Below, in pieces: positions 8,894-61,958 of a stretch of DNA of 64,000 nt. The translations under genes were made by a program, and so were the position numbers. Under the pieces are notes generated by a model, which did no database searches, was not told where the DNA came from, and saw only the letters and a program-made list of their open reading frames with translations. The first letter of the stretch is position 1; every line of letters starts with the position of its first letter. Source of the DNA: Candidatus Moraniibacteriota bacterium. Its GTDB lineage: Bacteria; Patescibacteriota; Minisyncoccia; Moranbacterales; UBA1568. The DNA lies in assembly GCA_030648835.1 (NCBI GenBank), contig JAUSGT010000003.1, positions 65,307 through 129,306 of the forward strand. Reading direction: 5' to 3'.

Positions 8894-10519
8894 ATGTCTC
8901 TATTGAACCAGCTGCGACAGTGGCGGAATAACCAGGCGCGCATCGAGGGCGTAGATACTTTTCGTGTGCTTCCGAATGCCGCTTTGGAGGCGTTGACAGG
9001 AACTTTGCCGAAAAATAAGGAAGAAATGCTTGCCATCAAAGGTATCAAAGAAGCCAAATATCGGAAGTATGGAGTGACTTTGTTGAGTATCATCAAAGAA
9101 CACTCTCACTCTTCTGTCATTCCCGTCCTCCAGTCGGCGGATAAACATCCGGCGGGAATCCAGAAAGAAAAATCCTGGATCCCCGATCAAGTCGGGGATG
9201 ACAAAAATAATTTGGAAGTTCAACTGCCAAATTCTTTGGATGATGAAAAAAAACAAGAAGAAGATCAGACGCTTTCCGTCAGTCAGTTCCTCGATGGCTT
9301 GAACGTAGAGCTCTCAGGGATGGCTTCACGAGTACAGGGTGAAGTATCGAGCGTGGATATCCGTCAGCGAGTGATATATTTCACCATCAAAGACAGTCAG
9401 GACGAAAGTACCCTCAATTGTCTCATCTTTCGTTACCAGTATGATGTTTCCGGGGTAGAGATTGCCCAGGGGGACGAGGTTATTGTGGAAGGCGTTCCGG
9501 AAATTTACAAACCGAGTGGGCGCTTGAGTCTGAAAGTCGGCGTCATCGAACTGTTTGGTGAGGGGGCGCTCAAGAAAGCCTATGAAGCGCTGAAAGCAAG
9601 GTTGGAACAAGCAGGGATGTTTGCCTCGGAACGCAAACGCCCGCTTCCGGAATTTCCCGAGCGTATTGCGCTTATTACTTCAGAGCAGGGCGCGGCTATC
9701 GGAGACTTTACGATGAATTTGGGGAGGCAGGGTTTCAAAGTGGATTTTTATCCGGTCAGCGTCGAAGGGAAAAAAGCGGTGTTTGAAATTATCAAAGCCA
9801 TACGGTATTTTGATCAACACTTCAAAAAATATGATGTGTTGGTAATCGTGCGCGGCGGCGGAAGTTTGGAAAGTCTGCAAGCGTTCAACAATGAAGCTCT
9901 CGTTCGCGAAATAGCCCAGTCGAAGATCCCGACTCTGCTTGGGGTCGGTCACGAAAAAGATGTCACACTGGCCGCGCTCGTCGCCGATATGATGGTGTCG
10001 ACCCCCACGGCGACCGCCAAACAACTGCGTTTGCATTTTGACGAGGCCAGACAACTCCTACGTCACTTCGAAGTCCAGTTGCCGACGTTGTTTCGAGAGA
10101 TGCTGGCGGATGTCGGGAATGTACTGGCGAGAGAGAGCGAGGCGTTACTTGGATATCTGCATGATTTTCGTGAAATAGTAGCGACATTGCGGCAGGATTT
10201 GACCGAGAGACTGTTCCTTATTCGAGCGGCGATAGAGCAGAAAGTCGAGTTGCTCAGGCAAGGAAAGAAAAGTTTGGAAAATGGATTTGGAGCTATTTTG
10301 GAACGGGTCACGGAGCGTATCTTGCACGTGGGCGAACGTTTGGAACAGTATGATCCGAAACAAGTATTGAAGTTGGGGTATAGTCTGGTGCGGAAGGGGA
10401 CAAGGGTGGTAAAGAATATTTCGGATATGCGGATTGGTGATATACTGGACATACAACTGAGTCATGGAAAAATGAATGCGAAGGTGGAAGAGATTTTCGA
10501 CGCTCCCGTGTCGTCCTGA
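8894..10519 (+). CDS. xseA: exodeoxyribonuclease VII large subunit with N-terminal HhH/HRDC-like extension
   Basis: OB-fold VQGEVSSVDIRQRVIYFTIKD, catalytic core IALITSEQGAAIGDF, RGGGSLESLQAFNNE; N-terminal ~60 aa VDTFRVLPNAALEALTGTLPKNKEEMLAIKGI resembles a helix-hairpin-helix module. Confidence 0.9.
   Translation: MSLLNQLRQWRNNQARIEGVDTFRVLPNAALEALTGTLPKNKEEMLAIKGIKEAKYRKYGVTLLSIIKEHSHSSVIPVLQSADKHPAGIQKEKSWIPDQVGDDKNNLEVQLPNSLDDEKKQEEDQTLSVSQFLDGLNVELSGMASRVQGEVSSVDIRQRVIYFTIKDSQDESTLNCLIFRYQYDVSGVEIAQGDEVIVEGVPEIYKPSGRLSLKVGVIELFGEGALKKAYEALKARLEQAGMFASERKRPLPEFPERIALITSEQGAAIGDFTMNLGRQGFKVDFYPVSVEGKKAVFEIIKAIRYFDQHFKKYDVLVIVRGGGSLESLQAFNNEALVREIAQSKIPTLLGVGHEKDVTLAALVADMMVSTPTATAKQLRLHFDEARQLLRHFEVQLPTLFREMLADVGNVLARESEALLGYLHDFREIVATLRQDLTERLFLIRAAIEQKVELLRQGKKSLENGFGAILERVTERILHVGERLEQYDPKQVLKLGYSLVRKGTRVVKNISDMRIGDILDIQLSHGKMNAKVEEIFDAPVSS
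9116..9202 (+). repeat. palindromic insertion element (RPE-like), in-frame within xseA linker
   Basis: GTCATTCCCGTCCTCCAGTCGGCGGATAAACATCCGGCGGGAATCCAGAAAGAAAAATCCTGGATCCCCGATCAAGTCGGGGATGAC; termini are inverted repeats and each half has an internal hairpin; encodes SVIPVLQSADKHPAGIQKEKSWIPDQVGDD. Confidence 0.8.
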
Positions 10520-10660
10520 ACGCAGTGAAGCCTGCCTGCCGGCGGACAGGGATCCCGCTGTACGAGAGGGAAACCCTCTATCTACGAGATTCTTCGTTTC
10601 GCTCAGAATGACAGGTGCTATGAAATGCGTAATTTTTATAATTAAACAGTAATAATTCTT

Positions 10661-10861
10661 ATGCCAAAAGTAAATCTGAGCGATTCTTTGAAAAAAGTGC
10701 AGGAAATCATTCACTGGTTCGATAATCAAGAAGAAGTGGATGTGGAAAAAGGATTGGAAAAAATCAAAGAGGGGACAGTTCTCATCAAAGAGAGCCGGAC
10801 GCGTTTGAAAGAAATCGAAAATGAGTTCGAGGTGGTGAAAAAAGAATTGGAAAAAGAATGA
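10661..10861 (+). CDS. xseB: exodeoxyribonuclease VII small subunit
   Basis: 66 aa; VQEIIHWFDNQEEVDVEKGLEKIKEGTVLIKESRTRLKEIENEFEVV is typical XseB. Confidence 0.85.
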   Translation: MPKVNLSDSLKKVQEIIHWFDNQEEVDVEKGLEKIKEGTVLIKESRTRLKEIENEFEVVKKELEKE

Positions 10862-10990
10862 TTTATGAGTATAGATTTTTGATTTTAGAATCTGTCGCTA
10901 TTCATGAATCTTAAATCCTCTTTCAAATGTGTTGAAGTTTCTAAAAAGAAAATAATGGTTATTTGCCCGATTTTACCGGCACTGCGCTCG

Positions 10991-11014
10991 GAAACGAAAG
11001 TTTACTTTCGTTTC
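10991..11014. promoter_or_regulatory. 24-bp perfect palindrome (candidate operator) upstream of korAB, embedded in a promoter-like motif shared with the 26436 gene
   Basis: GAAACGAAAGTTTACTTTCGTTTC; flanked by CCCGATTTTAC ... CTCACTTCGTTTGGTAATAAA, which recurs at 26346-26385. Confidence 0.5.
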
Positions 11015-14752: not shown

Positions 14753-14760
14753 AGATGAAA

Positions 14761-14870
14761 TTTCTAATTACCAATATCTAATTTCTAATGAAGTACCTAA
14801 TGTCATAATTTTGAAATTTGTCATTGAGATTTTTGTTAGAAATTAGTAATTAGGTATTAGACATTATCTC
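14761..14870. repeat. AT-rich heptamer-periodic repeat block (NTAATNN units, roughly palindromic overall) between sufS and sufU
   Basis: tttctaattaccaatatctaatttctaatg ... cattagaaattagtaattaggtattagacatt. Confidence 0.8.
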
Positions 14871-16133
14871 GCTTATTTCTTCTAGCCTAGCAACTAATTT
14901 ATCTATATCCTTCTCATCATTATAGATTGAGAGGCTTACCCGTGTCGTGGCGTTGAGATGGAACTTCCGGTGCAGCGGAGCGGCACAGTGTTCACCGGCG
15001 CGGACGCAGATGTTTCGTTCGCCCAAGAGCTGTGCGATATCGTGAGGATGAATGTCCTTGAGCGAGAATGCGACAATTCCTCCGCGCTCACTCGCTTCCC
15101 CCGGACCGATAATCCGAATATGTTTGCCAAAGGTCTCTCGCAAACGTTTCAAGGTATATGCTGTCAAAGCCGTTTCATGGACACGAATATTCTCACGGCC
15201 GATATTTTCGATATATTTTATAGCCGCTCCGAGCGCGATCACGCCTCCGATGTTTTGTGTCCCGGCTTCGAAACAGTATGGGCTTTCTCTATAGAGCGTT
15301 TTTTTTGCACAGGCATCGAGCACCATACCTCCGCCAAATATAACCGGGCGGAGTGTTTCGAGCAGGGTTTTCTTCCCATAGAGAATGCCGACCCCGGTTG
15401 TGCCGAACATCTTGTGAGCGGAGAATGCGACAAAATCCGCATTCCACTTGGAAACGTCCATGGGAGCATGGCCTATGGCTTGAGCGGCATCTATGAGAAT
15501 GATAGTTTTCGGATTGATGCTTTTGATCATGGCTACGATTTCGGAAACCGGACTGATGGTTCCCAGTACGTTTGAAACGGCGGAAAAAGCCACCACCCGG
15601 GTGTGGTCATCGATAGAATTTCGGAGTGCCTCAAGATCAATCAGTCCGTCTTCTGTGATAGGGACAACCCGGAAGGTGGCATCTTTCGCGCGGGCGAGCT
15701 CTTTCCATGGAAGGAAATTGGAATGGTGTTCCAACTCCGTCGTGACGATATTTGCTTTTGTCATCCCGGACTTGATCCGGGATCTAGATTCTGGCTCGTC
15801 GGCCGGAATGGCAGAGAAAAGAGATTTTTCAATGAGTTGAGCAACAAGATTGATGGAAGCGGTCGTCCCGGCGGTAAAAACGATTTCTTGGGGGCCTTTG
15901 GCGCCAATGAAGGCAGAAACTTGTTTGCGGACAGCCTCAAATTTTTCCGTAGCTGTTTCCGCCAGCGGATACAGACCACGTCCGACGTTGGAGGAGTACT
16001 GTTCCAGATATTCTTTTTCGGCATCGATCACCGCTTGTGGTTTGAGGGTTGTTGCGGCCGAGTCCAAGTACACCAGATCCGGATGATGGGTGAAAATAGG
16101 AAAATCAAGTTTTATAATTTTTGAGCTGAGCAT
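14850..16133 (-). CDS. sufS: cysteine desulfurase SufS (class V aminotransferase)
   Basis: PLP-Lys block SAHKMFGTTGVGILYGK, catalytic Cys region RAGEHCAAP; carries an in-frame palindromic insert (EPESRSRIKSGMTK). Confidence 0.9.
   Translation of the reverse strand: MLSSKIIKLDFPIFTHHPDLVYLDSAATTLKPQAVIDAEKEYLEQYSSNVGRGLYPLAETATEKFEAVRKQVSAFIGAKGPQEIVFTAGTTASINLVAQLIEKSLFSAIPADEPESRSRIKSGMTKANIVTTELEHHSNFLPWKELARAKDATFRVVPITEDGLIDLEALRNSIDDHTRVVAFSAVSNVLGTISPVSEIVAMIKSINPKTIILIDAAQAIGHAPMDVSKWNADFVAFSAHKMFGTTGVGILYGKKTLLETLRPVIFGGGMVLDACAKKTLYRESPYCFEAGTQNIGGVIALGAAIKYIENIGRENIRVHETALTAYTLKRLRETFGKHIRIIGPGEASERGGIVAFSLKDIHPHDIAQLLGERNICVRAGEHCAAPLHRKFHLNATTRVSLSIYNDEKDIDKLVARLEEISEIMSNT
15760..15814. 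repeat. palindromic insertion element (RPE-like) in-frame within sufS
   Basis: GTCATCCCGGACTTGATCCGGGATCTAGATTCTGGCTCGTCGGCCGGAATGGCAG; its reverse complement aligns with the mutY copy (CCGGAATCTAGATCCCGG core). Confidence 0.8.
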
Positions 16134-16144: not shown

Positions 16145-16178
16145 AATTTCTAATTTCTAATACCTAATTCCTAATATC
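16145..16178. repeat. heptamer repeat array at sufD/sufS junction
   Basis: aatttctaatttctaatacctaattcctaatatc. Confidence 0.75.
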
Positions 16179-16744
16179 TTTTTTATCTCTACTATATCAA
16201 CTCCCAATTTCTCCATCTTCTGAAGAGCATCGTTGAAAAAACCATCAATAAGAAGTTTTGTCGCTTGTGTTTTAGAAAGCCCGCGCGACTCTGCGAAAAA
16301 GAGAGACTCCTGACTTATGGGGCCGGCAGTGGCGGCGTGTCGGCAGCGCACATCATTGGCCAGAATTTCCAGCGTCGGTTTCAGAGAGACTTTGGTATTG
16401 GGGGAGAGAAGAATAGCACGGCTTTCTTGTGAAGCATCGCCTTGTATTGCTTGTTTGTTCATAAAGATAGATCCTTCGTAGGCGACTTCGGATTCATCGG
16501 AGAGAACGCTCTTGATGAGCGCGTGAGAAGTAGTTTTTGGCGCGAGGTGTTTTTGAAAAATTTTGAGCGTTGCCTTGTCGGTATTACGCCCAATAAAGAA
16601 AGAGAAAATATGAGCCTCCGCTCCGTGCCCCGCGAGTTCAATCGTGATAACTCCTGTACGATTGAGCATGAAGAACACACGCTTCTCGTTTGTTTTGAGA
16701 CGATAGAGTGGAGTTGCATCTTGTGAGATATCTTTATATTGCAT
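16157..16744 (-). CDS. sufD: short SufD-like Fe-S assembly protein (SufB/SufD C-terminal beta-helix core only)
   Basis: SufBD-family motifs (HGAEAHIFSF..., CRHAATAGPI...); 195 aa. Confidence 0.75.
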   Translation of the reverse strand: MQYKDISQDATPLYRLKTNEKRVFFMLNRTGVITIELAGHGAEAHIFSFFIGRNTDKATLKIFQKHLAPKTTSHALIKSVLSDESEVAYEGSIFMNKQAIQGDASQESRAILLSPNTKVSLKPTLEILANDVRCRHAATAGPISQESLFFAESRGLSKTQATKLLIDGFFNDALQKMEKLGVDIVEIKKILGIRY

Positions 16745-24104: not shown

Positions 24105-25208
24105 ATGAAAATTGCCGTATTGGTATCAGGAGGAGTGGATAGTTCGGTGGCTTTGCGTCTTTTGAAAGATGAGGGGCATGAACTGACTGCTTTTTATCTC
24201 AAAATCTGGCTGGAGGATGAATTGGCTTTCTTAGGAGAGTGTCCTTGGGAGGATGACTTGTCGTACGTGCGCGCCGTCTGCGAACAAGCCGGTGTGCCGC
24301 TGCAAATTGTGCCGTTTCAGAAAGAATACTGGGAGCGGGTGGTGGCGTACACGATTGATGAGGTGAAGGCCGGACGCACTCCCAATCCGGATATGCTCTG
24401 CAACGCGCGCATTAAATTTGGCGCGTTCTATGATGTCTTTGGAAAGAACTTTGACAAAGTAGCCACGGGACATTATGCGAATGTAGTCGACGGCTACCCT
24501 GAACCCGATTCAGGGTCTGGATTCCGGGTCAAGCCCGGAACGACAAGTCGGTTCTTTTTAAAGAAGACTCCGGATACTATCAAGGACCAGACATATTTTC
24601 TTTCGCAACTCTCGCAGGAGCAACTTTCCAAAGCTTTATTTCCAATCGGCGGATATACAAAAAAAGAAGTGCGTGCATTGGCAGAGAAATTCCAACTCCC
24701 CAATGCCAAACGCAAGGATAGCCAGGGCATCTGTTTTTTGGGGAAGATCCCTTTTGATAAGTTTCTGGAATATCATTTGGGAAAACGTCCGGGAAAGCTT
24801 ATTGAATATGAAACCAAAAAAGTGTTGGGCGAGCATAGCGGCTTCTGGTACTTTACGGTGGGGCAGCGGCGTGGCATCAAGCTATCTGGTGGGCCATGGT
24901 ATGTGGTGAAGAAGGATGCCGAAACGAATGAAATTTTCATCTCGCACGGAGAGCATCACGAAGAATTGGCACGTGGCTCATTCATAGTCGGAGGGCTGAA
25001 TTGGATTTCTGGCGCGCCTTCAAAGAAAACTGAATTTCAGATCAAAGTGCGACATGGCGCTAAAATGTATCCCGCAGTAATCAAGTCTTTAGGAGAAAAT
25101 CAGATAAAAGTCTCATTAAAAAAAGAGACTGACCAGGGCATTGCCGCGGGTCAGTTTGCCGTCTTCTACGACGGTGAAATTTGTCTTGGCGGGGGAACTA
25201 TAGAATAG
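24105..25208 (+). CDS. mnmA: tRNA-specific 2-thiouridylase
   Basis: PP-loop VLVSGGVDSSV, catalytic Cys regions; contains a degenerate in-frame palindromic insert (YPEPDSGSGFRVKPGTTS). Confidence 0.9.
   Translation: MKIAVLVSGGVDSSVALRLLKDEGHELTAFYLKIWLEDELAFLGECPWEDDLSYVRAVCEQAGVPLQIVPFQKEYWERVVAYTIDEVKAGRTPNPDMLCNARIKFGAFYDVFGKNFDKVATGHYANVVDGYPEPDSGSGFRVKPGTTSRFFLKKTPDTIKDQTYFLSQLSQEQLSKALFPIGGYTKKEVRALAEKFQLPNAKRKDSQGICFLGKIPFDKFLEYHLGKRPGKLIEYETKKVLGEHSGFWYFTVGQRRGIKLSGGPWYVVKKDAETNEIFISHGEHHEELARGSFIVGGLNWISGAPSKKTEFQIKVRHGAKMYPAVIKSLGENQIKVSLKKETDQGIAAGQFAVFYDGEICLGGGTIE
24496..24546 (+). repeat. degenerate copy of the palindromic insertion element inside mnmA
   Basis: TACCCTGAACCCGATTCAGGGTCTGGATTCCGGGTCAAGCCCGGAACGACA; the 3' half matches the tatD/xseA copies (CTGGATYCCGGGTCAAGCCCGG). 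Confidence 0.6.
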
Positions 25209-25252: not shown

Positions 25253-26344
25253 ATGTCTATGACTATCAGAAAAGATAAAATAGCTTTTTTTGAAAAGTCG
25301 CTTTTTGATTTCTTCCGCAAAGCGGGGCGGGAGCATTTGCCGTGGCGCAAAAAGAAAATCACGGCCTATGAAGTGTGGGTAGCGGAAGTGATGCTCCAGC
25401 AGACGCAGGTTTCGCGTGTTATCGGTTATTATGAGCGCTTTTTGAAGCAGTTCCCAATCGTTCAGAAACTAGCGCGAGTTTCGTGGGAGGAATTTCTGCC
25501 ATATTACGAGGGGCTGGGTTATTACACGCGTGGCCGCAATATGCTTGAAACGGCGAAAAAAGTGGTGAAGGATTACGGTGGAAAGTTTCCACGGGATAAA
25601 AAACTTTTGGAGACATTGCCAGGTGTCGGTCCCTATACGGCAGCAGCTATCATGAGCTTTGCCTACGGTGATGATCATCTGGCTTGGGATACGAACCTGA
25701 GGCGGGTGATCGGGCGATTTTTTTTCGGAACGAAGAATTTTGCTTCTGTCATTCCGGCCTACGAGCCGGAATCTAGATCCCGGGTTCCTCCGAAGGTGGG
25801 CAGGCAATCCGGGATGACATTAAAAAAGTTAGAGGAACAATTTTCTCTCCCCGCGAAAACACTGAACGCGGCGCTTATGGATTTTGGGAGCGCCTTGTGT
25901 GTCGGTCGGCCCAAGTGCGAGGCCTGCGCTCTGCGGAATCGGTGCGTGTACTATCGAGAGAAGGGGAGACAGGAAACAGTCAGCAGTCAACAGTCAACCC
26001 GCCTGCCGGCGAGGCAGGCAAAAAACAAAGGAGAAGATAAGAAACAAGATTGGAAAAACGCGCAGGTATATGTTTTTTTGCATGAGAATCATCGGAAATA
26101 TTTTTCATCCAGCAAAAGGCAGTTTAGGCCGTTTGTTTTACCTTCTGGTTATAATACACGCTCCGGCATCAAGAAATATTTTCAGGAGAAATATCAATTG
26201 ACACTTTCTGTCCGGCCACCTTATAAGAAAGAGAGTATCAAAGGAAAACAAATATTTTTTGTGAATGCGCAGATTCTTCTCGGGGAGCCGGTTTTTCGGG
26301 TGTTTCCGAAAAAACCCGGAAAAGAGTATAATAACGGGTATTAA
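25253..26344 (+). CDS. mutY: A/G-specific adenine DNA glycosylase MutY-like (HhH-GPD plus 4Fe-4S loop) with C-terminal extension
   Basis: VWVAEVMLQQTQVSRVIGYYERF, HhH GVGPYTAAAIMSFAY, Cys cluster CVGRPKCEACALRNRC; an in-frame palindromic insert encodes EPESRSRVPPKVGRQSGMT. Confidence 0.85.
   Translation: MSMTIRKDKIAFFEKSLFDFFRKAGREHLPWRKKKITAYEVWVAEVMLQQTQVSRVIGYYERFLKQFPIVQKLARVSWEEFLPYYEGLGYYTRGRNMLETAKKVVKDYGGKFPRDKKLLETLPGVGPYTAAAIMSFAYGDDHLAWDTNLRRVIGRFFFGTKNFASVIPAYEPESRSRVPPKVGRQSGMTLKKLEEQFSLPAKTLNAALMDFGSALCVGRPKCEACALRNRCVYYREKGRQETVSSQQSTRLPARQAKNKGEDKKQDWKNAQVYVFLHENHRKYFSSSKRQFRPFVLPSGYNTRSGIKKYFQEKYQLTLSVRPPYKKESIKGKQIFFVNAQILLGEPVFRVFPKKPGKEYNNGY
25748..25818 (+). repeat. palindromic insertion element (RPE-like) in-frame within mutY
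   Basis: GTCATTCCGGCCTACGAGCCGGAATCTAGATCCCGGGTTCCTCCGAAGGTGGGCAGGCAATCCGGGATGAC. Confidence 0.8.
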
Positions 26345-29381: not shown

Positions 29382-30353
29382 ATGGAACTTTCTTCTTCTT
29401 ACTCAAACGGGCCTCTGTATAGTCCGCAAAAGCGGGCGCTGGATATTGCCGTATCCAAGAAAACCGTTTTGGTTTTGAAGCCACCACGGAATACCCACAT
29501 GCTGCCGGGATGTTTGCCTGAAGTTTCCAAAAAGCGGGGGCTTGACGGAGCGCAGAAGGAAAAGCAGACGCTTCTCATGCAATTACAAGAGCGTTCATTA
29601 GAAGACGTTCTCTGGCGCTTTTTCCGTAAAGGGGAACTTTACTATCGATTGGTGAAACGTATTTTTTTTCGGCTTATTCCGGACATCACCCCTCACAAAA
29701 TGCTCTACGGCTCCTTGGTGGGCGGGGTGGCGTTTGGGATGGTCTCCATGGCCTTTATGGAACACTTTTTCGGGCCAGGCGTTTTCGCCCGTTCCTCGGA
29801 TTCGGCGCAGGAAGTGACAATTTCGCCAACCGGAGTAGCGGCGGTGTCTCAAACGGACGCAGATATAAAACAAACCGGTTACAATAGCGATACGGACATC
29901 TTTTTTGAATATTTCAATGAAGCTTCGGATGTACAATACAAGGAAACAGTCAAAAATATGGTCAAGGGGTATCCGATTGAAGGAATGCTCCCCTATATTT
30001 TTGAGCAAGACCGACTGACATCCGCTTTTTTGATTGGCATTGCCAAGAAGGAAAGCAACTGGGGCAAGCGTATCCCGGTCTTGGATGGGCAGGACTGTTT
30101 CAACTACTGGGGTTATCGGGGGGTGAGGAGGCTCATGGGGACAGGTGGGCACACTTGTTTCAATAGCAGCAAGGATGCCGTGGAAACGGTTGCCAAGCGT
30201 CTCAATACGCTTATCCATTCGGAAAAATTGAATACTCCGGAGAAAATGATTGTTTGGAAATGCGGATTCAGCTGTAGCGGGCATAGTCGTGAAAGTGTGA
30301 AAAAATGGATCAGCGACGTGGATATGTATTTCAAACAGCTGAGCGACGAATAG
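29382..30353 (+). CDS. membrane-anchored divergent GH73-like (glucosaminidase-type) peptidoglycan hydrolase homologue with Cys-rich C-terminus, paralogue 1
   Basis: TM helix; IAKKESNWGK (E-S-x-W-G of GH73/FlgJ-type), FNYWGYRG, VWKCGFSCSGHS; C-terminal ~170 aa clearly paralogous to the next gene. Confidence 0.5.
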   Translation: MELSSSYSNGPLYSPQKRALDIAVSKKTVLVLKPPRNTHMLPGCLPEVSKKRGLDGAQKEKQTLLMQLQERSLEDVLWRFFRKGELYYRLVKRIFFRLIPDITPHKMLYGSLVGGVAFGMVSMAFMEHFFGPGVFARSSDSAQEVTISPTGVAAVSQTDADIKQTGYNSDTDIFFEYFNEASDVQYKETVKNMVKGYPIEGMLPYIFEQDRLTSAFLIGIAKKESNWGKRIPVLDGQDCFNYWGYRGVRRLMGTGGHTCFNSSKDAVETVAKRLNTLIHSEKLNTPEKMIVWKCGFSCSGHSRESVKKWISDVDMYFKQLSDE

Positions 30354-30428: not shown

Positions 30429-31271
30429 GTGAAAAACTTGGTATTATTAGGCTTGCGTTTCAAAAGAGTTTTTGCTGTTTTAAGCCATTTCTTTGAGAAG
30501 GCAAAAGTTAGTGTGTCTATGAAAAATTTCTGCCAAAAATTGTTTTTTGCCAAAAGCGGCCTGTATTCTTGTTTGGCCTTTTTTTCTTTTGGATTGATGA
30601 GCGTTTTGCCCACAGCGTCTCAGATGATTCCCGATATTTCTCTTTCGGAAGCCAAATCTGTGGGCATGGTCACGACAGAAGAAGCAAACGAAAACGCTGC
30701 CGAACTTTGCCGCCTGCAGTCGGATGTGGCGTTGTTTACGGCTTTGCAGGAGCAAAAGAATGATATCCTTCAAACTGATACTTTGTGTGATAAAAAAACT
30801 CAAACCATGGTTAAGGCGGTAGGAAAAGGGGATGTCCACTTTGATAAGGCCTTGGGTGATACGATTCGAGAAATGACTATTGGTTACCCGATGGAAAAGA
30901 TGGCGCCGATTATCGCCAGATACGATCGGGAAGTTGCGGCGCTCATAGTAGGCATCGCCAAAAAAGAGAGCGATTGGGGAAAGCACAGCCCAAGCGATCA
31001 AAGTGGAGCGGATTGTTTCAATTATTGGGGGTACAAGGGGGCGGGAAGCCGTGGTGTGGCGATGGGGCATGGCTGTTTTGGTAGCCCTGAAGAAGCGGTG
31101 GTAACTGTCGGTGATCGTCTTCGAAAACTCGTTTCCTTGCGTCAGACAAGCGAACCGAAAAATATGGTTGTTTGGAAATGCGGCTCCAGTTGCAAGGGTC
31201 ACAGCCAAGAGAGCGTGAAAAAATGGGTTGCTGACGTTTCTCTTTATTATCAGCGTATAGTGGCGGAATAA
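30429..31271 (+). CDS. membrane-anchored divergent GH73-like protein, paralogue 2
   Basis: IAKKESDWGK, FNYWGYKG, VWKCGSSCKGHS; N-terminal TM. Confidence 0.5.
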   Translation: MKNLVLLGLRFKRVFAVLSHFFEKAKVSVSMKNFCQKLFFAKSGLYSCLAFFSFGLMSVLPTASQMIPDISLSEAKSVGMVTTEEANENAAELCRLQSDVALFTALQEQKNDILQTDTLCDKKTQTMVKAVGKGDVHFDKALGDTIREMTIGYPMEKMAPIIARYDREVAALIVGIAKKESDWGKHSPSDQSGADCFNYWGYKGAGSRGVAMGHGCFGSPEEAVVTVGDRLRKLVSLRQTSEPKNMVVWKCGSSCKGHSQESVKKWVADVSLYYQRIVAE

Positions 31272-31396: not shown

Positions 31397-32332
31397 ATGT
31401 CGTGGATTGGAGTAGCACTTTTCGGGTATTTTTTCAATGCCGTGACGGCGATTTTCGATAAGTATCTGCTTGCCGAGCGTATCAAGACGCCGGCGGTGTA
31501 TGCTTTTTTTGTTTCTTTGTTCAGTTTGTTCGTTCTCATATTTATTCCTTTCGGATTTCGGTTTTTCAATTGGCAGACAACGGGGATCTTCCTTTTTTCG
31601 GGGGCTTTGTTTCTTTATGGGTTGGTGGCTCTGTATACTGCCGTGAAAGAAAGTGAAATTTCCCGCATAACGCCCTTGGTTGGAACAGTAGTTTCTCTTG
31701 TTGCTATCGGAGTGGGATTTTTTCCAGGAACTTTTTCAGAAACCGCTTTTTCTTTGTCTCATATAGTGGTGCTTGTTTTATTGATCGGCGGTGGATTGCT
31801 TATTTCTTTCGATTTGCCACTGCGAAAACAGGAGCATATCTCTTCTTCTGTCGTTATTGCGGGTGTGGCTATGGGGGTATCGCTGCTTCTTTTGAAATAC
31901 GGATACGCTGATGCGAATTTTGTCAGCGGTTTGATATGGTCGCGGATAGGAATGTTTTTGGCCGGGCTCTCTCTTTTTTTGGTACCAACGTACCGTGGGC
32001 AGATTCTGAATGAAGTGAGCGCATTTTCCGGAATTTCCCGTTCGGTAGTCCATACGGGAGCGATCTTTGTGATGAATAAGCTCTGTGCCGGAGGAGCGAG
32101 CCTCCTCATTATTTATGCGACCTATCTCGGCCCGGTTTCTTTCGTACAGGCGCTTTCCGGGATGCAGTATGTTTTTCTCCTTCTTTTGGCTTTGCCGCTT
32201 TCTTTGCGTTATCCTCAAGTGTTCGGTGAAAGGCTGTTCTTCTGGGATTGGTTTCAGAAGGCTTGCGCAATCATAATTATCGGGCTTGGTTTGTGGCTCT
32301 CTGCCACGAGTGGAATAAAACTACTTGTCTAA
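31397..32332 (+). CDS. 10-TM membrane protein, possibly DMT/EamA-like superfamily
   Basis: Hydropathy only; two 5-TM halves. Confidence 0.4.
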   Translation: MSWIGVALFGYFFNAVTAIFDKYLLAERIKTPAVYAFFVSLFSLFVLIFIPFGFRFFNWQTTGIFLFSGALFLYGLVALYTAVKESEISRITPLVGTVVSLVAIGVGFFPGTFSETAFSLSHIVVLVLLIGGGLLISFDLPLRKQEHISSSVVIAGVAMGVSLLLLKYGYADANFVSGLIWSRIGMFLAGLSLFLVPTYRGQILNEVSAFSGISRSVVHTGAIFVMNKLCAGGASLLIIYATYLGPVSFVQALSGMQYVFLLLLALPLSLRYPQVFGERLFFWDWFQKACAIIIIGLGLWLSATSGIKLLV

Positions 32333-38755: not shown

Positions 38756-38845
38756 TGGAGAAAAACGAATTATGAATTAGGAATTGTGAATCTTGAGCGG
38801 AAAGAAATTTTTTGATTCCTTATTCCTGATTCTTGATTCATCTGG
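38756..38845. repeat. heptamer repeat block (TAATTCN / GAATCTT units) between rpmI and rplT
   Basis: attatgaattaggaattgtgaatcttgagcgg...ttgattccttattcctgattcttgattcatctgg. Confidence 0.75.
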
Positions 38846-39046: not shown

Positions 39047-39125
39047 AACTTTGAAAATTTCCAATTCCTAATGTCTTATCAGGATTCTTATTAGAAATTA
39101 GATATTAGGTATTAGATATTTTGTC
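39047..39125. repeat. heptamer repeat block between infC and rpmI
   Basis: aaaatttccaattcctaatgtcttatcaggattcttattagaaattagatattaggtattagatatttt. Confidence 0.8.
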
Positions 39126-43825: not shown

Positions 43826-45451
43826 ATGATTTTGGAACGGGAAATTCGGACTGTTTTGGAAGCGTTGCAAAAAGCGGGAGCTCTGCCTCCTTTTCCGTTG
43901 CCGGAAATTCTGGTGGAGCGGCCCAAAGAAGATCAATTCGGGGAGTACAGTTCGAATGTGGCTCTCATGCTTGCCAAACAGGCGAAGAAAAATCCGATGG
44001 AATTGGCGCAGATAATAGAATCTGGAATCTTGAATCTGGAATCTGGAAACAAGAATGAAATTATAGAGAAGATTGAGGTGGCAAGTCCCGGGTATATTAA
44101 TTTTTATCTTTCCCAGAAAGCTTTGGGGGCCGTTGTGGAAGAAGTGCTGGTAAAAAAGGATCGGTACGGGGCCGGTGAAATTGGCAAAGGAGTGAAAGTA
44201 AATAATGAATTCATTTCTGCCAACCCGACCGGGCCGCTGCATCTTGGCAACGGACGGGGTGGATTCTATGCCGACGTATTGTCACGCGTACTGCGTAAAG
44301 TTGGTTATGATGTGGTTAACGAATACTATGTGAATGATGCCGGGGAGCAGATTCTCAAATTGGGGCACAGCGTTCTCAAGGATAGTGAAGTGGTGTATGA
44401 GGGGAATTATGTTGATGCGTTGCATCAACGAATCATGAATCATGAATCAGGGATCACGGAAGAAAGTGATTCTAAAGAAGCAGGAGCATGGGCAGCGCAG
44501 GAGATTTTGGAAAACATGATCAAAAAAACAGTCGAGCAAGCGATGCATATTTCGTTTGATGTTTGGACTTCCGAACGGAAGCTTTTCGAGGATGGCTTGG
44601 TTGATGAAGCAATCGAAAAACTGAAATCTGCAGGAATGACTTTCGAAAATGAAGGGGCCCTTTGGCTGAAAACTTCCGAACAGGGCGATGACAAGGATCG
44701 TGTGCTTATCAAAGCAGACGGCAAAAAAACATATTTGGCATCCGATGCGGGTCATATCCTGAGTTATCTCAAGAGCAAGGTTGATACTATTTTAGAAACT
44801 TTTGGTGCCGATCATCATGGGTATACGAAACGTTTTGAAATTGTTGCTCGGGCGCTTGGTTTCACGGGTGAGATTCATTTTACGTTGGTGCAGCTGGTCA
44901 AGGTAGTGAAAGACGGCGAGGAAGTCCGCATGAGCAAGCGGGCGGGGAATGTCATCACCATCGACGAGCTGATTGAGAAAGTAGGACACGATGTGGCGCG
45001 CTTCTTTTTCCTTCTGTACGCGCCGGAAACCCAAATGAACTTTGATCTTGGGTTGGCCGAAGAACATTCGGAGAAGAACCCGGTTTTTTACGTCCAGTAT
45101 GCTCACGCGCGGCTTGCCAGTATTTTGCGAAAAGCTGAGGAGGAGGGTTTCACAAAAAATGGCGGTGATCTCAATCTTCTCGTCCATCCGAAAGAGCGGG
45201 GACTGATTCGCGAGCTTATGTTCTTTCCGGAACTGATTGAAACGATTGCCCGAGATTTCTCCGTGCACAGACTGCCGCAGTATGCCATCCGTTTGGCCGA
45301 TAAACTCCATTCTTTTTATGCTGACTGTCGCGTGCTGGATGAAGAGGATAAGCCGCTCACATACGCCCGTTTGGAGCTTATCTCGGCGGTGAAAATCGTT
45401 TTGGCAGAGACGCTCCACGTGATGGGAATCACGGCACCGGAAAAAATGTAA
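43826..45451 (+). CDS. argS: arginyl-tRNA synthetase (start at second ATG, 7 nt after AAGGAG)
   Basis: Class I HIGH-like PTGPLHLGNGRG; ArgS-specific C-terminal anticodon-binding domain; in-frame heptamer-repeat insertion LESGILNLESGNKN. Confidence 0.9.
   Translation: MILEREIRTVLEALQKAGALPPFPLPEILVERPKEDQFGEYSSNVALMLAKQAKKNPMELAQIIESGILNLESGNKNEIIEKIEVASPGYINFYLSQKALGAVVEEVLVKKDRYGAGEIGKGVKVNNEFISANPTGPLHLGNGRGGFYADVLSRVLRKVGYDVVNEYYVNDAGEQILKLGHSVLKDSEVVYEGNYVDALHQRIMNHESGITEESDSKEAGAWAAQEILENMIKKTVEQAMHISFDVWTSERKLFEDGLVDEAIEKLKSAGMTFENEGALWLKTSEQGDDKDRVLIKADGKKTYLASDAGHILSYLKSKVDTILETFGADHHGYTKRFEIVARALGFTGEIHFTLVQLVKVVKDGEEVRMSKRAGNVITIDELIEKVGHDVARFFFLLYAPETQMNFDLGLAEEHSEKNPVFYVQYAHARLASILRKAEEEGFTKNGGDLNLLVHPKERGLIRELMFFPELIETIARDFSVHRLPQYAIRLADKLHSFYADCRVLDEEDKPLTYARLELISAVKIVLAETLHVMGITAPEKM
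44020..44053 (+). repeat. GAATCTG heptamer tandem repeat (x4) in-frame inside argS
   Basis: gaatctggaatcttgaatctggaatctggaaac. Confidence 0.8.
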
Positions 45452-46768: not shown

Positions 46769-49654
46769 ATGTTTAAAAAAGTGGACGCCAATGTAAATTT
46801 TCCGAAGATGGAAGAAGCCATCCTTCAGTTTTGGGATGCCGAAAAAATATTTGAAAAATCGATACGTCAGCGAGAAGGCAAGGCAGGCTATAGCTTCTAT
46901 GATGGACCGCCGTTTGCGACGGGGACACCGCATTACGGGCATATCGTGGCGAGCGCCATCAAAGACACCGTACCGCGCTACTTCACGATGAAAGGTTTTC
47001 AAGTCGAACGCAAATGGGGTTGGGATTGTCATGGCCTGCCGATCGAAAATATCGCGGAAAAGGAATTGGGCATCACGCACAAGAAAGAAATTGTGGCGTT
47101 GGGCGTAGAGAAGTTCAACGAGATCTGCCGCTCCAAAGTCCTGGAATACGTAGCGGAATGGAAAAAAGTGATCCGCCGTTTCGGCCGCTTTGCCGATATG
47201 GAGAACGCTTACAAGACGATGGACCTCGACTATATGGAATCCATCTGGTGGGTGTTCAAAGAATTGTGGGACAAAGGACTCATCTATGAAAGTTACCGGA
47301 CGATGCATATCTGCCCGCGCTGTGAGACGACCTTGTCGCAATCGGAAGTAGCGGAAGGCTATAAAGATGTGAAAGACTTGGCCGTTACGGCAAAGTTCGA
47401 GCTGGTTGACGAGCCGGGAACTTTTGTTTTGGCTTGGACAACAACACCGTGGACGCTTCCGGGGAATGTAGCACTGGCTGTAGGCAAGAGTATCAGGTAT
47501 CAAGTAGTACGTATTAAGGGAGAAAAAGAAAAGTACATTGTGGCAGAAGATAGGGCAGAGGGCCTGTTTAAAGACAGGGAATATGAAATTATTGAAGAAT
47601 TCAAAGGAGAAGAACTCGTGGGTAAATCCTACAAGCCGTTGTTTGATTATTATACTCAAGATAAAAAACTGGAAAACCGTGAAAATGGCTGGAAGATTTA
47701 TCACGCGGATTTCGTAACGACGGAAGTGGGGACAGGGATCGCCCATGAAGCGCCGGCCTTCGGTGAAGAAGATATGGAGTTGGGGAAAAAAGAAAAATTA
47801 CCTTTCGTTCAGCACGTGAAGATGGATGGGACGATGAAAGATGAAGTAACAGACTTTGCGGGAATGTCGGTGAAGCCCAAAGAAAATCCGCAGGCTATGG
47901 ATGTGGAAATTATAAAATATCTAGCTCATACAGGGCTGCTTTTTGTCAAAGAGAAATATGAGCACAGCTATCCGCATTGCTGGCGTTGCGATACGCCGCT
48001 TCTCAACTACGCGACCTCTTCATGGTTCGTCAGTGTGACGAAAGTGAAGGGGCGGGCTTTGGAATTAGCGGAAAGTATCCATTGGTCACCGGAACATATT
48101 AAAGTTGGGCGTTTCGGCAAGTGGTTGGAAGGGGCGCGTGACTGGTCTATCAGTCGGCAGCGTTATTGGGCCTCTGTTATGCCACTTTGGAAATGTGATT
48201 GCGGAGAGATGAAAGTGTTTGGTTCGGTAGCAGAACTTGAAAAGGCGAGCGGGAAAAAAGTTGCGGATCTTCACAAGCATATCGTTGATGAAATCACATT
48301 CCCCTGTGAAAAGTGTGGGGAAATGATGAAGCGTATCCCAGACGTTTTGGACACGTGGTTCGATAGCGGTTCGATGCCATACGCGCAGGCCCACTATCCG
48401 TTTGCGGACAAGGAAAAATTCGAGAAGAGTTTTCCGGCGCAGTTCATTGCTGAGGGCATCGATCAAACGCGGGCCTGGTTTTACTATCTTCATATCATTG
48501 CCACGAGCATCAAAGACAAGGGTGCCTTTCAGAATGTCGTTGTCAACGGTATCGTGCTTGCTGAAGATGGCAAGAAAATGTCGAAAAAATTGCAGAACTA
48601 TCCGGATCCGATGACCATACTGGATAAATACGGCGCGGATGTGTTGCGTTTTTATCTTCTTTCTTCACCGGTGGTGGCTGCGGAGAATCTCAATTTTTCC
48701 GAGCGTGATCTGAACGACGTCAGTCGCAATGTTTTCCGCATGTTGTGGAATTCGTACTCGTTTTTTACCACATATGCTTCCATAGATAATTGGGAACCCA
48801 AGAAAGGCGCGAAACCTTCGGAAAGTATTTTGGATAAATGGATTCTTTCGGAATTACAGCTTCTGATTCAGGAAGTGGAAAGCGCCATGGAAAAATACGA
48901 ACTTTCCAAAGCGACGCGCCTGTTCACACCGTTTATCGACAACCTTTCCAATTGGTACATCCGCCGCAGCCGCAAGCGCTTCTGGAAAAGTGAAGACGAC
49001 AACGACAAAGAAAATGCTTATCAGACTCTGTATGATGTCTTGGTGACGCTTGTAAAAGTGATGGCGCCCTTCACGCCTTTTCTCTCTGAGGAAATATTTA
49101 AAAATTTGGCTGAGGAAGAATCCGTACATTTAGCAGATTGGCCAATCGTAAAGAAAGAACTGATTGATGAGAAGTTGAATGAAGAAATGAGAACTGCGCG
49201 TGACCTCGTGACAGAAGGATTGAAACTTCGTTCCGATGCAAAAATCAAGGTGAGACAGCCACTAGGTGTATCAGGTATCAGGTATCAGGTATCAGGCGAG
49301 ATGCAGGAAATTCTCAAAGAAGAATTGAATGTGAAAAATATTGTCGTTGATGAAAAACAAATTGGAAATATCACTCTCAATACTGAAATTACTGAAGAAC
49401 TCAAACTCGAAGGGGCAGCGCGGGAAATCATTCGAGCTATCCAGGAAGGGCGCAAGAAAGCCAAATTTAATGTTGAAGACAGAGTTATTCTTGGCTATCA
49501 GGGCAAAGAAAATGTTTTTGCGAAATTTGAAAATGAGATTGCCAAAGAAGTGCTCGCGACATCTGTACAAAGAGGCAACCTTGCCGATGCCGAATACAAT
49601 GAAACTGTTGAACTGGATGGCGAACAGTTCAGTTTTTCGTTGAAAAGAGTGTAA
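46769..49654 (+). CDS. ileS: isoleucyl-tRNA synthetase
   Basis: PPFATGTPHYGHI (HIGH), GWDCHGLPIE, WTTTPWTLPGN, KMSKKLQNYP (KMSKS); in-frame GTATCAG heptamer insert near the C-terminus. Confidence 0.9.
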   Translation: MFKKVDANVNFPKMEEAILQFWDAEKIFEKSIRQREGKAGYSFYDGPPFATGTPHYGHIVASAIKDTVPRYFTMKGFQVERKWGWDCHGLPIENIAEKELGITHKKEIVALGVEKFNEICRSKVLEYVAEWKKVIRRFGRFADMENAYKTMDLDYMESIWWVFKELWDKGLIYESYRTMHICPRCETTLSQSEVAEGYKDVKDLAVTAKFELVDEPGTFVLAWTTTPWTLPGNVALAVGKSIRYQVVRIKGEKEKYIVAEDRAEGLFKDREYEIIEEFKGEELVGKSYKPLFDYYTQDKKLENRENGWKIYHADFVTTEVGTGIAHEAPAFGEEDMELGKKEKLPFVQHVKMDGTMKDEVTDFAGMSVKPKENPQAMDVEIIKYLAHTGLLFVKEKYEHSYPHCWRCDTPLLNYATSSWFVSVTKVKGRALELAESIHWSPEHIKVGRFGKWLEGARDWSISRQRYWASVMPLWKCDCGEMKVFGSVAELEKASGKKVADLHKHIVDEITFPCEKCGEMMKRIPDVLDTWFDSGSMPYAQAHYPFADKEKFEKSFPAQFIAEGIDQTRAWFYYLHIIATSIKDKGAFQNVVVNGIVLAEDGKKMSKKLQNYPDPMTILDKYGADVLRFYLLSSPVVAAENLNFSERDLNDVSRNVFRMLWNSYSFFTTYASIDNWEPKKGAKPSESILDKWILSELQLLIQEVESAMEKYELSKATRLFTPFIDNLSNWYIRRSRKRFWKSEDDNDKENAYQTLYDVLVTLVKVMAPFTPFLSEEIFKNLAEEESVHLADWPIVKKELIDEKLNEEMRTARDLVTEGLKLRSDAKIKVRQPLGVSGIRYQVSGEMQEILKEELNVKNIVVDEKQIGNITLNTEITEELKLEGAAREIIRAIQEGRKKAKFNVEDRVILGYQGKENVFAKFENEIAKEVLATSVQRGNLADAEYNETVELDGEQFSFSLKRV
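49267..49296 (+). repeat. GTATCAG heptamer tandem repeat (x4) in-frame inside ileS (encodes GVSGIRYQVSG)
   Basis: gtatcaggtatcaggtatcaggtatcagg. Confidence 0.85.
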
Positions 49655-50552: not shown

Positions 50553-50720
50553 GAATATCTAATTCCTAATATCTAATACCAAATCAATAACCAAATACAA
50601 AAAATATCAAAATAGATAATAAAGAATCGGTATCGCGATCGCTTTGCGCGGTTTGGTATTGAGGCATTAAGCATTCATTAGATATTAGAAATTAGGTATT
50701 AGATATTGGACGGCTAGCGT
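50553..50720. repeat. heptamer repeat blocks flanking a short unique spacer (recO/DUF11 intergenic)
   Basis: aagaatatctaattcctaatatctaataccaaatcaataaccaaatac ... cattagatattagaaattaggtattagatattgg (inverted relative orientation). Confidence 0.8.
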
Positions 50721-57206: not shown

Positions 57207-57236
57207 TTAATACCTGATACATAATACGTAATACTT
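57207..57236. repeat. heptamer repeat array directly upstream of AI-2E gene start
   Basis: taatacctgatacataatacgtaatac. Confidence 0.8.
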
Positions 57237-58267: not shown

Positions 58268-58275
58268 AAAAAGTA

Positions 58276-58365
58276 TAATGTAGCAGGTATCACGTATTAT
58301 GTATAATGTGGATACTGAAGTTTTCATATCTCATACCTGATACATAATACCTGATACGAGATACA
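58276..58365. repeat. heptamer repeat block with inverted halves upstream of rsmI
   Basis: gtagcaggtatcacgtattatgtataatgtgg...catacctgatacataatacctgatacgagatac. Confidence 0.8.
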
Positions 58366-59116: not shown

Positions 59117-59143
59117 GTTGGAGAGAGATGAGGTTACTGGGGA

Positions 59144-60945: not shown

Positions 60946-60950
60946 TTTTT

Positions 60951-61040
60951 GTATCAGGTAGCATGTATCAGGTATTAGGCGATGTCTTGTTAGATTCTGC
61001 AAAAATACATGATACATAATACACGATACATTATACCTCT
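60951..61040. repeat. heptamer repeat block with inverted halves upstream of tatD
   Basis: gtatcaggtagcatgtatcaggtattagg...catgatacataatacacgatacattatacc. Confidence 0.8.
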
Positions 61041-61043
61041 GGT

Positions 61044-61958
61044 ATGCTTGATATTCACGCCCATTTGTTTTGGAAATCGTATGATACGGATCGTGACGTT
61101 GTGATTGAACGCGCTCGGGCAGCGGGGGTGACGAAGATGATCTGCGTTGGCACCGAGCCGGAGGATAATCCTCTCGCTATAAAAATGGCCGAAAAATATG
61201 AGGGCGTTTTTGCTGCGGTAGGGATACACCCACACTTTTTCAATAAGAATATTTTTTTGTGTCATTCCCGCGAAGGCGGGAATCCAGGAAACAAAGAAAA
61301 TTCTGGATCCCGGGTCAAGCCCGGGATGACAGTCCTTGAGGGTTTGGTAAATGATTTAAAAAAACTGGCGAAACATGCGAGAGTTGTAGCTATCGGGGAG
61401 TGTGGCTTGGATTACTATTCGCATGACAAGACAAAAGTCATCACGGATGAGCAGAAAGCGTTACAAAAAGAGGGGTTTCTTGCGCAAATTGAGATTGCCC
61501 AAGAGCTTGGTTTGCCACTTATTGTGCATACCCGCCCATCTGTTGGGAGCATGGATGCCTACGCAGATGTCTTAAAAATTTTGCGTGATACAAAATACAT
61601 GATACATAATACGGTTTTGCATTGTTATCAGGGTGATACGGAAATAACCAAAAAATTTCTTGAACTCGAAAACGTTTATTTCTCCTTTGCTGGCAACATC
61701 ACTTATCCGGTGAAAGGGTCGTTTGTGGGAACGAAAAATGATGCGACTGAAACCGTGAAACTGGTGCTGCTGGAGAGGCTGTTTGTCGAGACGGACTGCC
61801 CATTTCTTGCACCGCAGAGCAAGCGTGGTCAACGTAATGAACCGGCATTTGTTATGGAAACGGCCGAGAAAATTGCTTCTCTCAAGGGGGTATCTGTTGG
61901 GGAGCTCAATCAAAGAGTGATTGAAAACAGCGAGCGAGTGTTTCGGGAAAATTGCTAG
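61044..61958 (+). CDS. tatD: TatD-family metal-dependent deoxyribonuclease carrying two in-frame repeat insertions
   Basis: MLDIHAHL, ...GECGLDY..., final DxP/ETD motifs; inserts are CHSREGGNPGNKENSGSRVKPGMT (palindromic element) and RDTKYMIHNT (heptamer repeat). Confidence 0.85.
   Translation: MLDIHAHLFWKSYDTDRDVVIERARAAGVTKMICVGTEPEDNPLAIKMAEKYEGVFAAVGIHPHFFNKNIFLCHSREGGNPGNKENSGSRVKPGMTVLEGLVNDLKKLAKHARVVAIGECGLDYYSHDKTKVITDEQKALQKEGFLAQIEIAQELGLPLIVHTRPSVGSMDAYADVLKILRDTKYMIHNTVLHCYQGDTEITKKFLELENVYFSFAGNITYPVKGSFVGTKNDATETVKLVLLERLFVETDCPFLAPQSKRGQRNEPAFVMETAEKIASLKGVSVGELNQRVIENSERVFRENC
61261..61330 (+). repeat. palindromic insertion element (RPE-like) in-frame within tatD
   Basis: GTCATTCCCGCGAAGGCGGGAATCCAGGAAACAAAGAAAATTCTGGATCCCGGGTCAAGCCCGGGATGAC. 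Confidence 0.85.
61586..61613 (+). repeat. heptamer repeat in-frame inside tatD
   Basis: gatacaaaatacatgatacataatacg, the same family as the intergenic arrays at 57207, 58330 and 61000. Confidence 0.75.

Follow-up and report, generated by a model that had tools for sequence, protein, structure and literature searches.

Why do five conserved housekeeping genes on one contig of a Candidatus Moraniibacteriota bacterium each carry a short palindromic segment that leaves their reading frame open, and what put the segments there? The DNA analysed here, which we call the window, is a 64-kb stretch (GenBank assembly GCA_030648835.1, contig JAUSGT010000003.1, positions 65,307 to 129,306) with 47% GC and ~90% coding sequence. 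A first-pass annotation had proposed that xseA, sufS, mnmA, mutY and tatD contain related elements resembling the Rickettsia palindromic elements (RPEs) that Ogata et al. reportedly described in 2000. All five segments are present where it had placed them, and they share the terminal motif it had noted, but its exact bounds did not hold, as the conserved ends (TGTCAT...ATGACA) are one base wider. Our comparisons indicate that the five segments are very probably lineage-specific, in-frame insertions of a single element family. With the same high confidence, the elements are head-to-head pairs of TGTC-tagged repetitive extragenic palindromic (REP) sequences, which have been published both as CGTC-REP dimers and as pairs of the Ssn-related motif (SRM). 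The whole account, in which this identity and the in-frame insertion are combined with mobilisation by a GIY-YIG nuclease, appears likely.

Each element consists of two TGTC-tagged hairpins placed head-to-head around a variable spacer, and in all five dimers of the 64 kb the heads point outward (Table 1). The tag TGTC stands ahead of seven intact arms in the window. The stems are 8-9 bp long and start with AT (ATTCCCGC/GCGGGAAT, ATCCCGGG/CCCGGGAT, ATCCCCGA/TCGGGGAT and ATCCCGGA/TCCGGGAT), and the loops measure 4-5 nt in five arms, namely both tatD arms and the right arms of xseA, sufS and mnmA. Longer loops occur in the left arm of mutY (6 nt), the right arm of mutY (21-25 nt) and the left arm of xseA (23 nt); the long ones in the latter two look like nested pieces of 20-25 nt. 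The arms of tatD and xseA end in a CCA tail, and those of mutY and sufS in CTA. The stems vary among copies yet remain paired (GGG/CCC, CGA/TCG, GGA/TCC), and at least 10 distinct right-arm stems are perfectly paired across 132 family copies; judged by these pairings, the hairpin is the conserved feature of the family. The folding energies of the elements lie 2.8 to 5.3 standard deviations below those of shuffled sequences, with the tatD copy at z = -5.3. Two earlier descriptions need to be narrowed. The mutY and sufS copies do share a core, but the two versions are one base apart (CCGG vs CCAG) rather than identical, and the sufS copy is opposite to the others with respect to the window but not with respect to its gene, sufS being on the minus strand.

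The terminal motif GTCATYCCSG matched eight times in the window, compared with 0.55 matches expected from dinucleotide-preserving shuffles (0 of 100 shuffles reached eight), and element ends account for seven of the eight. The remaining match (GTCATCCCGG at 4047-4056) is isolated, has no surrounding hairpin and was rejected as an element. Single-sequence nhmmer queries linked all five copies to one another and found no sixth copy in the window. Rfam at gathering thresholds recovered only the tmRNA in the window, with no match at the elements.

Apart from the three longer loops, the arms have the structure that defines a published repeat family. CGTC-tagged REPs (Di Nocera, De Gregorio & Rocco 2013, BMC Genomics 14:522; PMC3733652) have an unpaired tag that is (C/T)GTC or CCTC, a stem of 8-9 bp starting with A-T, a loop of 4 or 5 nt and a tail that is mostly CCA; they form mainly head-to-head dimers with a variable spacer, and most copies are intergenic. 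The tatD left arm fits the CGTC-1 type (8 bp stem, 4 nt loop), and the right arms in the window agree with a stem of 8 bp and a loop of 5 nt. A second description comes from Neisseria, where the NTS motif is CGTCATTCCCGCGMAVGCGGGAATCYRG and a looser pattern is called the SRM (Nat Commun 2025;16:2388; PMC11893778). There, the small GIY-YIG protein SsnA cuts the NTS motif as single-stranded DNA, the gene lies in an NTS–ssnA–NTS layout, many SRMs occur in Rickettsia, Wolbachia and Sphingomonas, and the proposed role of NTS and SsnA in Neisseria is the trimming of transforming DNA (PMC11893778). The tatD left arm is one base from the NTS consensus. Four arms in the window match the published SRM pattern, compared with 0.23 expected and a maximum of two in 100 shuffles, and sister Moranbacteria show the motif–GIY-YIG–motif arrangement described for ssnA. 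In contrast to that system, the 64-kb window is without an ssn-like gene, and the main text of PMC11893778 is silent on in-frame copies and on Patescibacteria.

The RPE-like reading of the first-pass annotation thus gained support beyond analogy, since the arms largely conform to the CGTC/TGTC-tagged REP definition and the 2013 survey equates R. conorii CGTC-1 with RPE-6 and CGTC-4 with RPE-4 (CGTC-1 in Neisseria being dRS3; PMC3733652). This probable kinship rests on that statement and on a Rickettsiaceae genome (L074) with matches to the strict pattern described below. As with RPEs, the repeats here are palindromic, in frame in unrelated conserved genes, apparently translated and tolerated in loops. 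They differ in size (51-89 bp here vs ~150 bp for RPEs as first described; PMC10969869) and in their host, which has 47% GC and no known link to an intracellular lifestyle. Other small-element families were set aside. A classical miniature inverted-repeat transposable element (MITE) would share the inverted-repeat arms, but there is no flanking direct repeat and no linked transposase of insertion-sequence type; Coxiella QMITE1 is ~400 bp long with terminal inverted repeats of 21-28 nt, and QMITE2 carries a GTAG REP, so that both belong to other families.

Beyond the window, a strict whole-pair pattern with ~27 specified bases was searched in a collection of 596 Gb holding one genome per species. 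It occurred in at least 120 DNA stretches from many phyla, and by our own estimate its chance expectation is well below one in 596 Gb. Hosts among the matches listed include several classes of Proteobacteria, Nitrospirae, Planctomycetota, Omnitrophota, Gemmatimonas, Elusimicrobia and a Nocardia, together with members of the Candidate Phyla Radiation (CPR), namely Uhr-, Wolfe-, Roizman-, Nomura- and Gottesmanbacteria and Saccharimonadales. A Rickettsiaceae metagenome-assembled genome (MAG; L074) carries three copies by the same pattern. No long open reading frame (ORF) spans most of the copies among the matches listed. The census of spanning ORFs is unreliable in high-GC genomes, which produce spurious long ORFs, and only low-GC cases were used. 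By inspection of the translations, clear in-frame cases include GatB (L078) and valyl-tRNA synthetase (ValRS; L117) of Roizmanbacteria, a MobA-like protein of Omnitrophota (L018) and a membrane protein of Gottesmanbacteria (L105). As far as pattern matches can tell, the family is pan-bacterial and not special to this genome.

Alignments of the host proteins bear on how the segments arose. The five copies are all in frame and free of stops, and they add 29 residues in XseA, 18 in SufS, 16 in MnmA and 24 each in MutY and TatD, within the 15-30 residues first proposed; the peptides quoted in the first-pass annotation are correct, and the insert-derived peptides include GNPGNKENSGSR and VPPKVGR. 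The segments had been expected to prove lineage-specific, and they were without counterpart in the orthologues aligned for all five hosts (patchily so for tatD), which argues against the same peptide being ordinary conserved sequence in distant orthologues. At the mutY site, ~100 of 120 Moranbacteria-type orthologues have no insert, including the two closest (69% identity), and DNA comparison with the empty sites in L121 and L122 gave the net insert of 72 nt. SufS is ~18 residues longer here than in 60 of 60 representative SufS proteins and in B. subtilis SufS (5xt5), while TatD has ~30 residues where the solved TatD structures 1j6o and 2gzx have ~3. Both hairpin-encoded stretches of XseA are lacking in 8 of 8 relatives (51-77% identity), which share the HRDC–linker–OB layout. 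The HRDC domain itself (window 8894-9100, residues 3-67) lies ahead of the OB fold, in a fusion kept in 8 of 8 relatives. The 16-residue segment of MnmA is lacking both in the orthologue of the syntenic relative L122 (74% identity overall, 50 gap positions) and in E. coli MnmA (2der). We also observed that L122 MnmA (8333-9484) has lineage-specific inserts of its own, SSPERPQGVEGSIMSIGT and GTVPLSLEDSTAPLGKGS, so that different lineages have decorated this one enzyme at different loops.

The open frames are not what random landing would produce. In the family sample, which is mostly intergenic, element lengths are spread evenly over the three remainders modulo 3 (37/46/44), and ~54% of frames are free of stops. 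A gene would therefore stay intact after ~0.18 of random hits, and five of five would do so by chance with a probability of ~2e-4. Removal of the segments from the RNA would impose no filter on frame or stops, and we therefore read the inserts as translated. The expectation that they would lie in surface loops was borne out in the two AlphaFold2 models, where the TatD and MutY inserts are coil with a predicted local distance difference test (pLDDT) score below 50. In TatD (mean pLDDT 88.5), only the insert (residues 72-95) scores below 50; in MutY, insert residues 164-187 are coil and fall below 50 at 168-182. For xseA, sufS and mnmA, loop placement rests on alignment gaps against solved structures. 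On our reading, the inserts would be transcribed and translated as disordered surface loops.

Insertion sites were used more than once. Across the 120 MutY orthologues, hairpin-type peptide inserts occur at one variable site only, in at least 10 sequences and in several subtypes. The DNA of three filled sites shows that elements of different subtypes entered in three phases within 3 nt, one at the second position of codon 11 and the others at the first and second positions of codon 12. The empty sites show neither a target-site duplication nor a shared target motif. The tatD element is present in the clade of the window, with some orthologues carrying it and others not, and it also occurs in two distant sequences (P0008 and P0016), though not in their nearest relatives. 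The element DNA of the window and that of L124 are ~93% identical, against 59% identity for the TatD proteins and diverged flanks. The simplest reading is that this copy reflects recent independent insertion at one site; alternatively, it may have been retained for long under DNA-level constraint, or have been homogenised between copies. We infer a target preference, and not selection alone, from the recurrence of inserts at one mutY codon and at the tatD site. As a separate observation beside mutY, a Moranbacteria-type contig (L143, 843-2218) has a reverse transcriptase gene (RVT_1) and a bAvd-like gene directly upstream of mutY, a pair typical of diversity-generating retroelements.

Orientation is equally regular. 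All five window copies have one orientation relative to the host gene; in heterodimers within genes, the ATTCC arm is 5' on the sense strand in 4 of 4 scorable window copies (the mnmA left arm being too decayed) and in 6 of 6 low-GC in-gene loci, one of which (L016) lies only 16 codons from the start of its ORF. Because GC skew is positive across the whole window, this orientation follows transcription (5/5) and not replication (4/5). Stop codons were considered as the cause of the bias and rejected, as the two orientations leave 1.61 vs 1.49 of 3 frames open. The flanks show a single signal, a stretch of ~10 nt poor in G ahead of each head, and position -1 is a pyrimidine (C or T) in 97% of 124 family copies. 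A copy of opposite orientation was seen in a Proteobacteria MAG (L081), where a 627-codon spanning ORF contains the hairpin-pair peptide SSSPRRRGSSGLKDLDSRFRGNDG; judged by its sequence repeats only, the protein looks like a type I restriction specificity subunit, and a partial copy lies at the equivalent place in its first half.

These regularities might instead mean that in-gene copies are kept because they do something, either as sites for an Ssn-like nuclease whose cuts would curb the recombination of incoming single-stranded DNA into core genes, the effect that NTS has in Neisseria, or as RNA hairpins that tune translation or mRNA stability. The near-identity of the tatD copies despite diverged proteins and flanks would fit such a role, although recent independent insertion from similar master copies explains it equally well. 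Perfect stem pairing kept through compensatory changes and a shared sense-strand orientation, where both orientations are about equally open, point the same way, and three of the five hosts (xseA, mutY and tatD) handle DNA, echoing a remark on replication and repair genes in PMC3733652. Set against this are the patchy distribution among orthologues, most of which are without any insert, the decay of the mnmA and sufS copies, and the syntenic relative L122, which has none of the copies. On this evidence, retention for function appears unlikely. Taken with the few SRMs in relatives, the empty L122 suggests that the lineage of the window gained its in-gene copies recently.

Turning to insertion as the source of the pattern, no mobilising gene was found in the window itself. 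The first-pass annotation had found no transposase or integrase there and had regarded the elements as non-autonomous; a Pfam scan of 55 ORFs likewise found neither kind of gene, in keeping with that reading. A regular-expression hunt for GIY-YIG ORFs in the window returned only noise. Sister sequences are more informative. In L125 (Table 1), a GIY-YIG gene is enclosed by two SRMs with their heads outward; L127 and L128 have the same layout, and L129 has an SRM downstream of the gene only. The SRMs lie a few to ~40 bases from the gene ends (L125, L127/L128). L123, with a TatD of 78% identity over conserved columns, has a further SRM–GIY-YIG–SRM unit flanked by atpA and atpG. An arm flanking a sister unit, TGTCATCCCGGGCTTGACCCGGGATCCA, is identical to the right arm of the tatD copy in the window. 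In three relatives, leuS is immediately followed by the unit, at a point downstream of the atp operon that comes after tatD. The equivalent place in this genome would be roughly 10-12 kb past the end of the window, and a 6.9-kb Logan contig (L131) found through AtpB stops short of it. Full-length GIY-YIG homologues are 82-94% identical in related metagenomes and 68-72% identical in Nitrospirae and Omnitrophica MAGs; such distant homologues, like the elements in many phyla, fit a horizontal spread of unit and hairpins.

Two further observations concern these genes. In L123 a palindrome of a different type, ~100 nt long and containing two inner hairpins (CCAGCACCTTC...GAAGGTGCTGG), is inserted at 7172-7270 and splits the GIY-YIG gene. 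The truncated GIY-YIG product of 76-79 residues is recorded on 5 to 37 contigs per cluster (P0258, P0259, P0261 and P0262).

In the mechanism we propose, the hairpin pair would represent a non-autonomous form, lacking the gene, of the small unit in which hairpins enclose a GIY-YIG nuclease gene. An Ssn-like GIY-YIG single-strand nuclease, encoded elsewhere in the genome, would recognise the folded hairpins on single-stranded DNA and mobilise them. Copies landing in genes would survive only where their net length is a multiple of three, where the host frame meets no stop and where the loop tolerates 16-29 extra residues.

Nonetheless, several points weigh against this mechanism. No GIY-YIG gene was found in the 64-kb window by Pfam or by tblastn with two GIY-YIG queries. 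The Moranbacteria GIY-YIG proteins match only PF01541 in Pfam and, weakly, the UPF0213 structure 1zg2 in the PDB, and they match no NCBIfam model. No target-site duplication or excision footprint was seen at the copies. In related Moranbacteria DNA, SRMs are sparse, with few outside tatD and the GIY-YIG units, so that activity may be rare or past, and the mnmA copy is already decaying. To our knowledge, Ssn has never been shown to move DNA, and PMC11893778 goes no further than showing that single-stranded DNA is cut at specific sites and that transformation is affected. With these points counted, we infer that a trans-acting Ssn-like GIY-YIG nuclease is the best candidate mobiliser, and give it about an even chance of being the right one.

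A competing enzyme would be a transposase. REPINs are reportedly mobilised by RAYT transposases (Bertels & Rainey 2011), and an IS200/IS605-type tyrosine (Y1/HUH) transposase could mobilise the present pairs in the same way. The architecture is REPIN-like, as two inverted REP hairpins form one non-autonomous unit without target-site duplication and a flanked single-copy gene is the presumed driver. L125 even encodes a Y1_Tnp protein (PF01797) ~9 kb from its GIY-YIG unit, but that gene has no nearby SRM, unlike the GIY-YIG genes. The tag here is TGTC/CGTC, whereas RAYT-associated REPs have GTAG; Pfam found no Y1_Tnp in the window; and Y1 transposase genes flanked by CGTC repeats were looked for in the 2013 survey and none were found (PMC3733652). 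The TGTC tag, the window without Y1_Tnp and the unflanked L125 gene led us to reject REPIN/RAYT as the system at work, and mobilisation by any Y1 enzyme in place of a GIY-YIG nuclease seems very unlikely. As for ordinary fast-evolving loops or assembly artefacts that are alike by chance or composition, all five sites are indeed variable loops where other lineages also carry unrelated inserts, but this explanation has practically no chance given motif counts far above shuffled controls, one 28-nt arm that recurs in unrelated genes and beside GIY-YIG genes, elements in independent assemblies (JGI, NCBI and Logan) and the at least 120 strict-pattern stretches.

Part of this picture is already published, including the element family, its kinship to RPEs, its intragenic habit and its association with GIY-YIG genes. 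The first-pass annotation knew of no description of such elements in this kind of genome; their presence in CPR bacteria is apparently new, but the family itself had been named in 2013 and again in 2025. CPR or Patescibacteria are absent from both of these papers, with the five phyla of the 2013 survey not including CPR (PMC3733652 and PMC11893778), and a literature search on palindromic elements and MITEs in this group found nothing relevant. Also unlike the elements of that survey, for which no dedicated transposase or other enzyme was found, the five window copies are all intragenic, two arms have nested loop insertions, and sister genomes show a flanked GIY-YIG gene. New here are the CPR hosts, the tight link there between in-frame copies and flanked GIY-YIG units, and the hot-spot, phase and orientation patterns, which hint at targeted insertion.

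In-frame palindromic inserts are thus not a curiosity of Rickettsia, as the same family occurs in CPR bacteria (Moranbacteria, GatB and ValRS of Roizmanbacteria, and a membrane protein of Gottesmanbacteria). About 90% of a CPR genome is coding, so that most landings would fall inside genes, and CPR metagenomes amount to a large natural experiment on insertion-tolerant protein loops. Inserts of this kind inflate and diversify 'conserved' marker proteins of MAGs, and alignments, annotations and phylogenies can be led astray by them. For the enzyme missed by the 2013 survey, the tight hairpin–GIY-YIG–hairpin units offer a concrete candidate. It is a tentative and rather doubtful extension that a small Ssn-like GIY-YIG nuclease is the long-missing mobiliser of CGTC REPs and RPE-type elements in general, acting through single-stranded DNA with marked target preference. 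On that view, the preference would explain why the mutY codon and the tatD loop were hit repeatedly in separate Moranbacteria lineages, as well as the three mutY phases within 3 nt and the single sense-strand orientation. If true, insertion driven by GIY-YIG enzymes would be a new mode of transposition, one by which housekeeping proteins in reduced genomes are routinely remodelled.

Table 1 Host genes, hairpin-pair elements and 7-nt repeat arrays in the window, and the hairpin-flanked GIY-YIG gene of sister sequence L125 (in coordinates of L125)
Feature	Position	Strand	Details
xseA	8894..10519	+	Exonuclease VII large subunit with N-terminal HRDC domain (Pfam)
Element in xseA	9115..9203	+	TGTCAT...ATGACA; encodes VIPVLQSADKHPAGIQKEKSWIPDQVGDD, linker between HRDC and OB-fold domains
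xseA element, left arm	9115-9162		ATTCCCG...CGGGAAT, small hairpin nested in loop
xseA element, centre			Stem CCAGA...TCCTGG
xseA element, right arm	9176-9203		TGTC/ATCCCCGA/TCAAG/TCGGGGAT
sufS	14850..16133	-	Cysteine desulfurase (Pfam class-V aminotransferase), in suf operon
Element in sufS	15759..15815	- (sense strand of sufS)	Encodes (S)AIPADEPESRSRIKSGMT
sufS element, left arm			ATTCCGGCC/GACGAG/GCCAGAAT, slightly decayed
sufS element, centre and right arm			Stem collapsed to TCTAGA; TGTC/ATCCCGGA/TCAAG/TCCGGGAT
mnmA	24105..25208	+	tRNA 2-thiouridylase (Pfam)
Element in mnmA, degenerate	24496..24546	+	Encodes roughly GYPEPDSGSGFRVKPGTT
mnmA element, left hairpin			ACCCTGAA/CCCGA/TTCAGGGT
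mnmA element, right arm			ATTCCGGG/TCAAG/CCCGGAAC; ATGAC end lost, ACGAC instead
mutY	25253..26344	+	Adenine DNA glycosylase, HhH-GPD type (Pfam)
Element in mutY	25747..25819	+	Net insert 72 nt, encodes VIPAYEPESRSRVPPKVGRQSGMT
mutY element, arms			Left TGTC/ATTCCGGCC/TACGAG/...; centre TCTAGA; right ATCCCGG...CCGGGAT, nested loop 21-25 nt
tatD	61044..61958	+	TatD-family hydrolase (Pfam)
Element in tatD, best preserved	61260..61331	+	72 nt, encodes CHSREGGNPGNKENSGSRVKPGMT
tatD element, left arm			TGTC/ATTCCCGC/GAAG/GCGGGAAT/CCA
tatD element, centre and right arm			Stem CCAGGA...TTCTGG; other strand TGTC/ATCCCGGG/CTTGA/CCCGGGAT/CCA
L125 SRM, first	9969-9996		Head outward
L125 GIY-YIG gene	10001-10291		96 residues
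L125 SRM, second	10294-10322		Head outward
7-nt arrays, intergenic	8862-8884, 14759-14866, 16145-16179, 32338-32380, 38813-38839
7-nt arrays, intergenic	39089-39120, 50554-50707, 57208-57234, 58273-58365, 61004-61036
7-nt arrays, within genes	44018-44048, 44430-44456, 49268-49296, 61586-61612

A second repeat class was found in the window, consisting of tandem 7-nt units (TAATACC, TTAGATA, AATTTCT, GTATCAG, GAATCTG and ATACATG) that fill most intergenic spacers. Some of these arrays lie in frame within genes, encoding ESGILNLESG and RIMNHESGIT in ArgRS, GVSGIRYQVSG in IleRS and DTKYMIHNT in TatD, and, in TatD orthologues, related AT-rich inserts (e.g., NSKSQVPNKSQI..KIQ) occupy the loop in which the hairpin pair lies. 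We know of no description of this 7-nt tandem repeat class.

Elsewhere in the window, a 195-residue SufD-like ORF (16157-16744) aligns to positions 96-232 of the SufBD core profile, its C-terminal half only, and is either a short form or a truncated gene. ARAGORN predicted a 93-nt tRNA-Gln (1456-1548) inside a P-type ATPase ORF (1257-3026), which is without Rfam support and probably false. Two adjacent ORFs (29382-30353 and 30429-31271), neither of them matched by Pfam, resemble each other over 94 nt at 71% identity and look like paralogues, and a third ORF without a Pfam match follows at 31397-32332. In a Big_13/TSP3 surface protein, an 87-nt unit is repeated 2.4 times (34325-34534).

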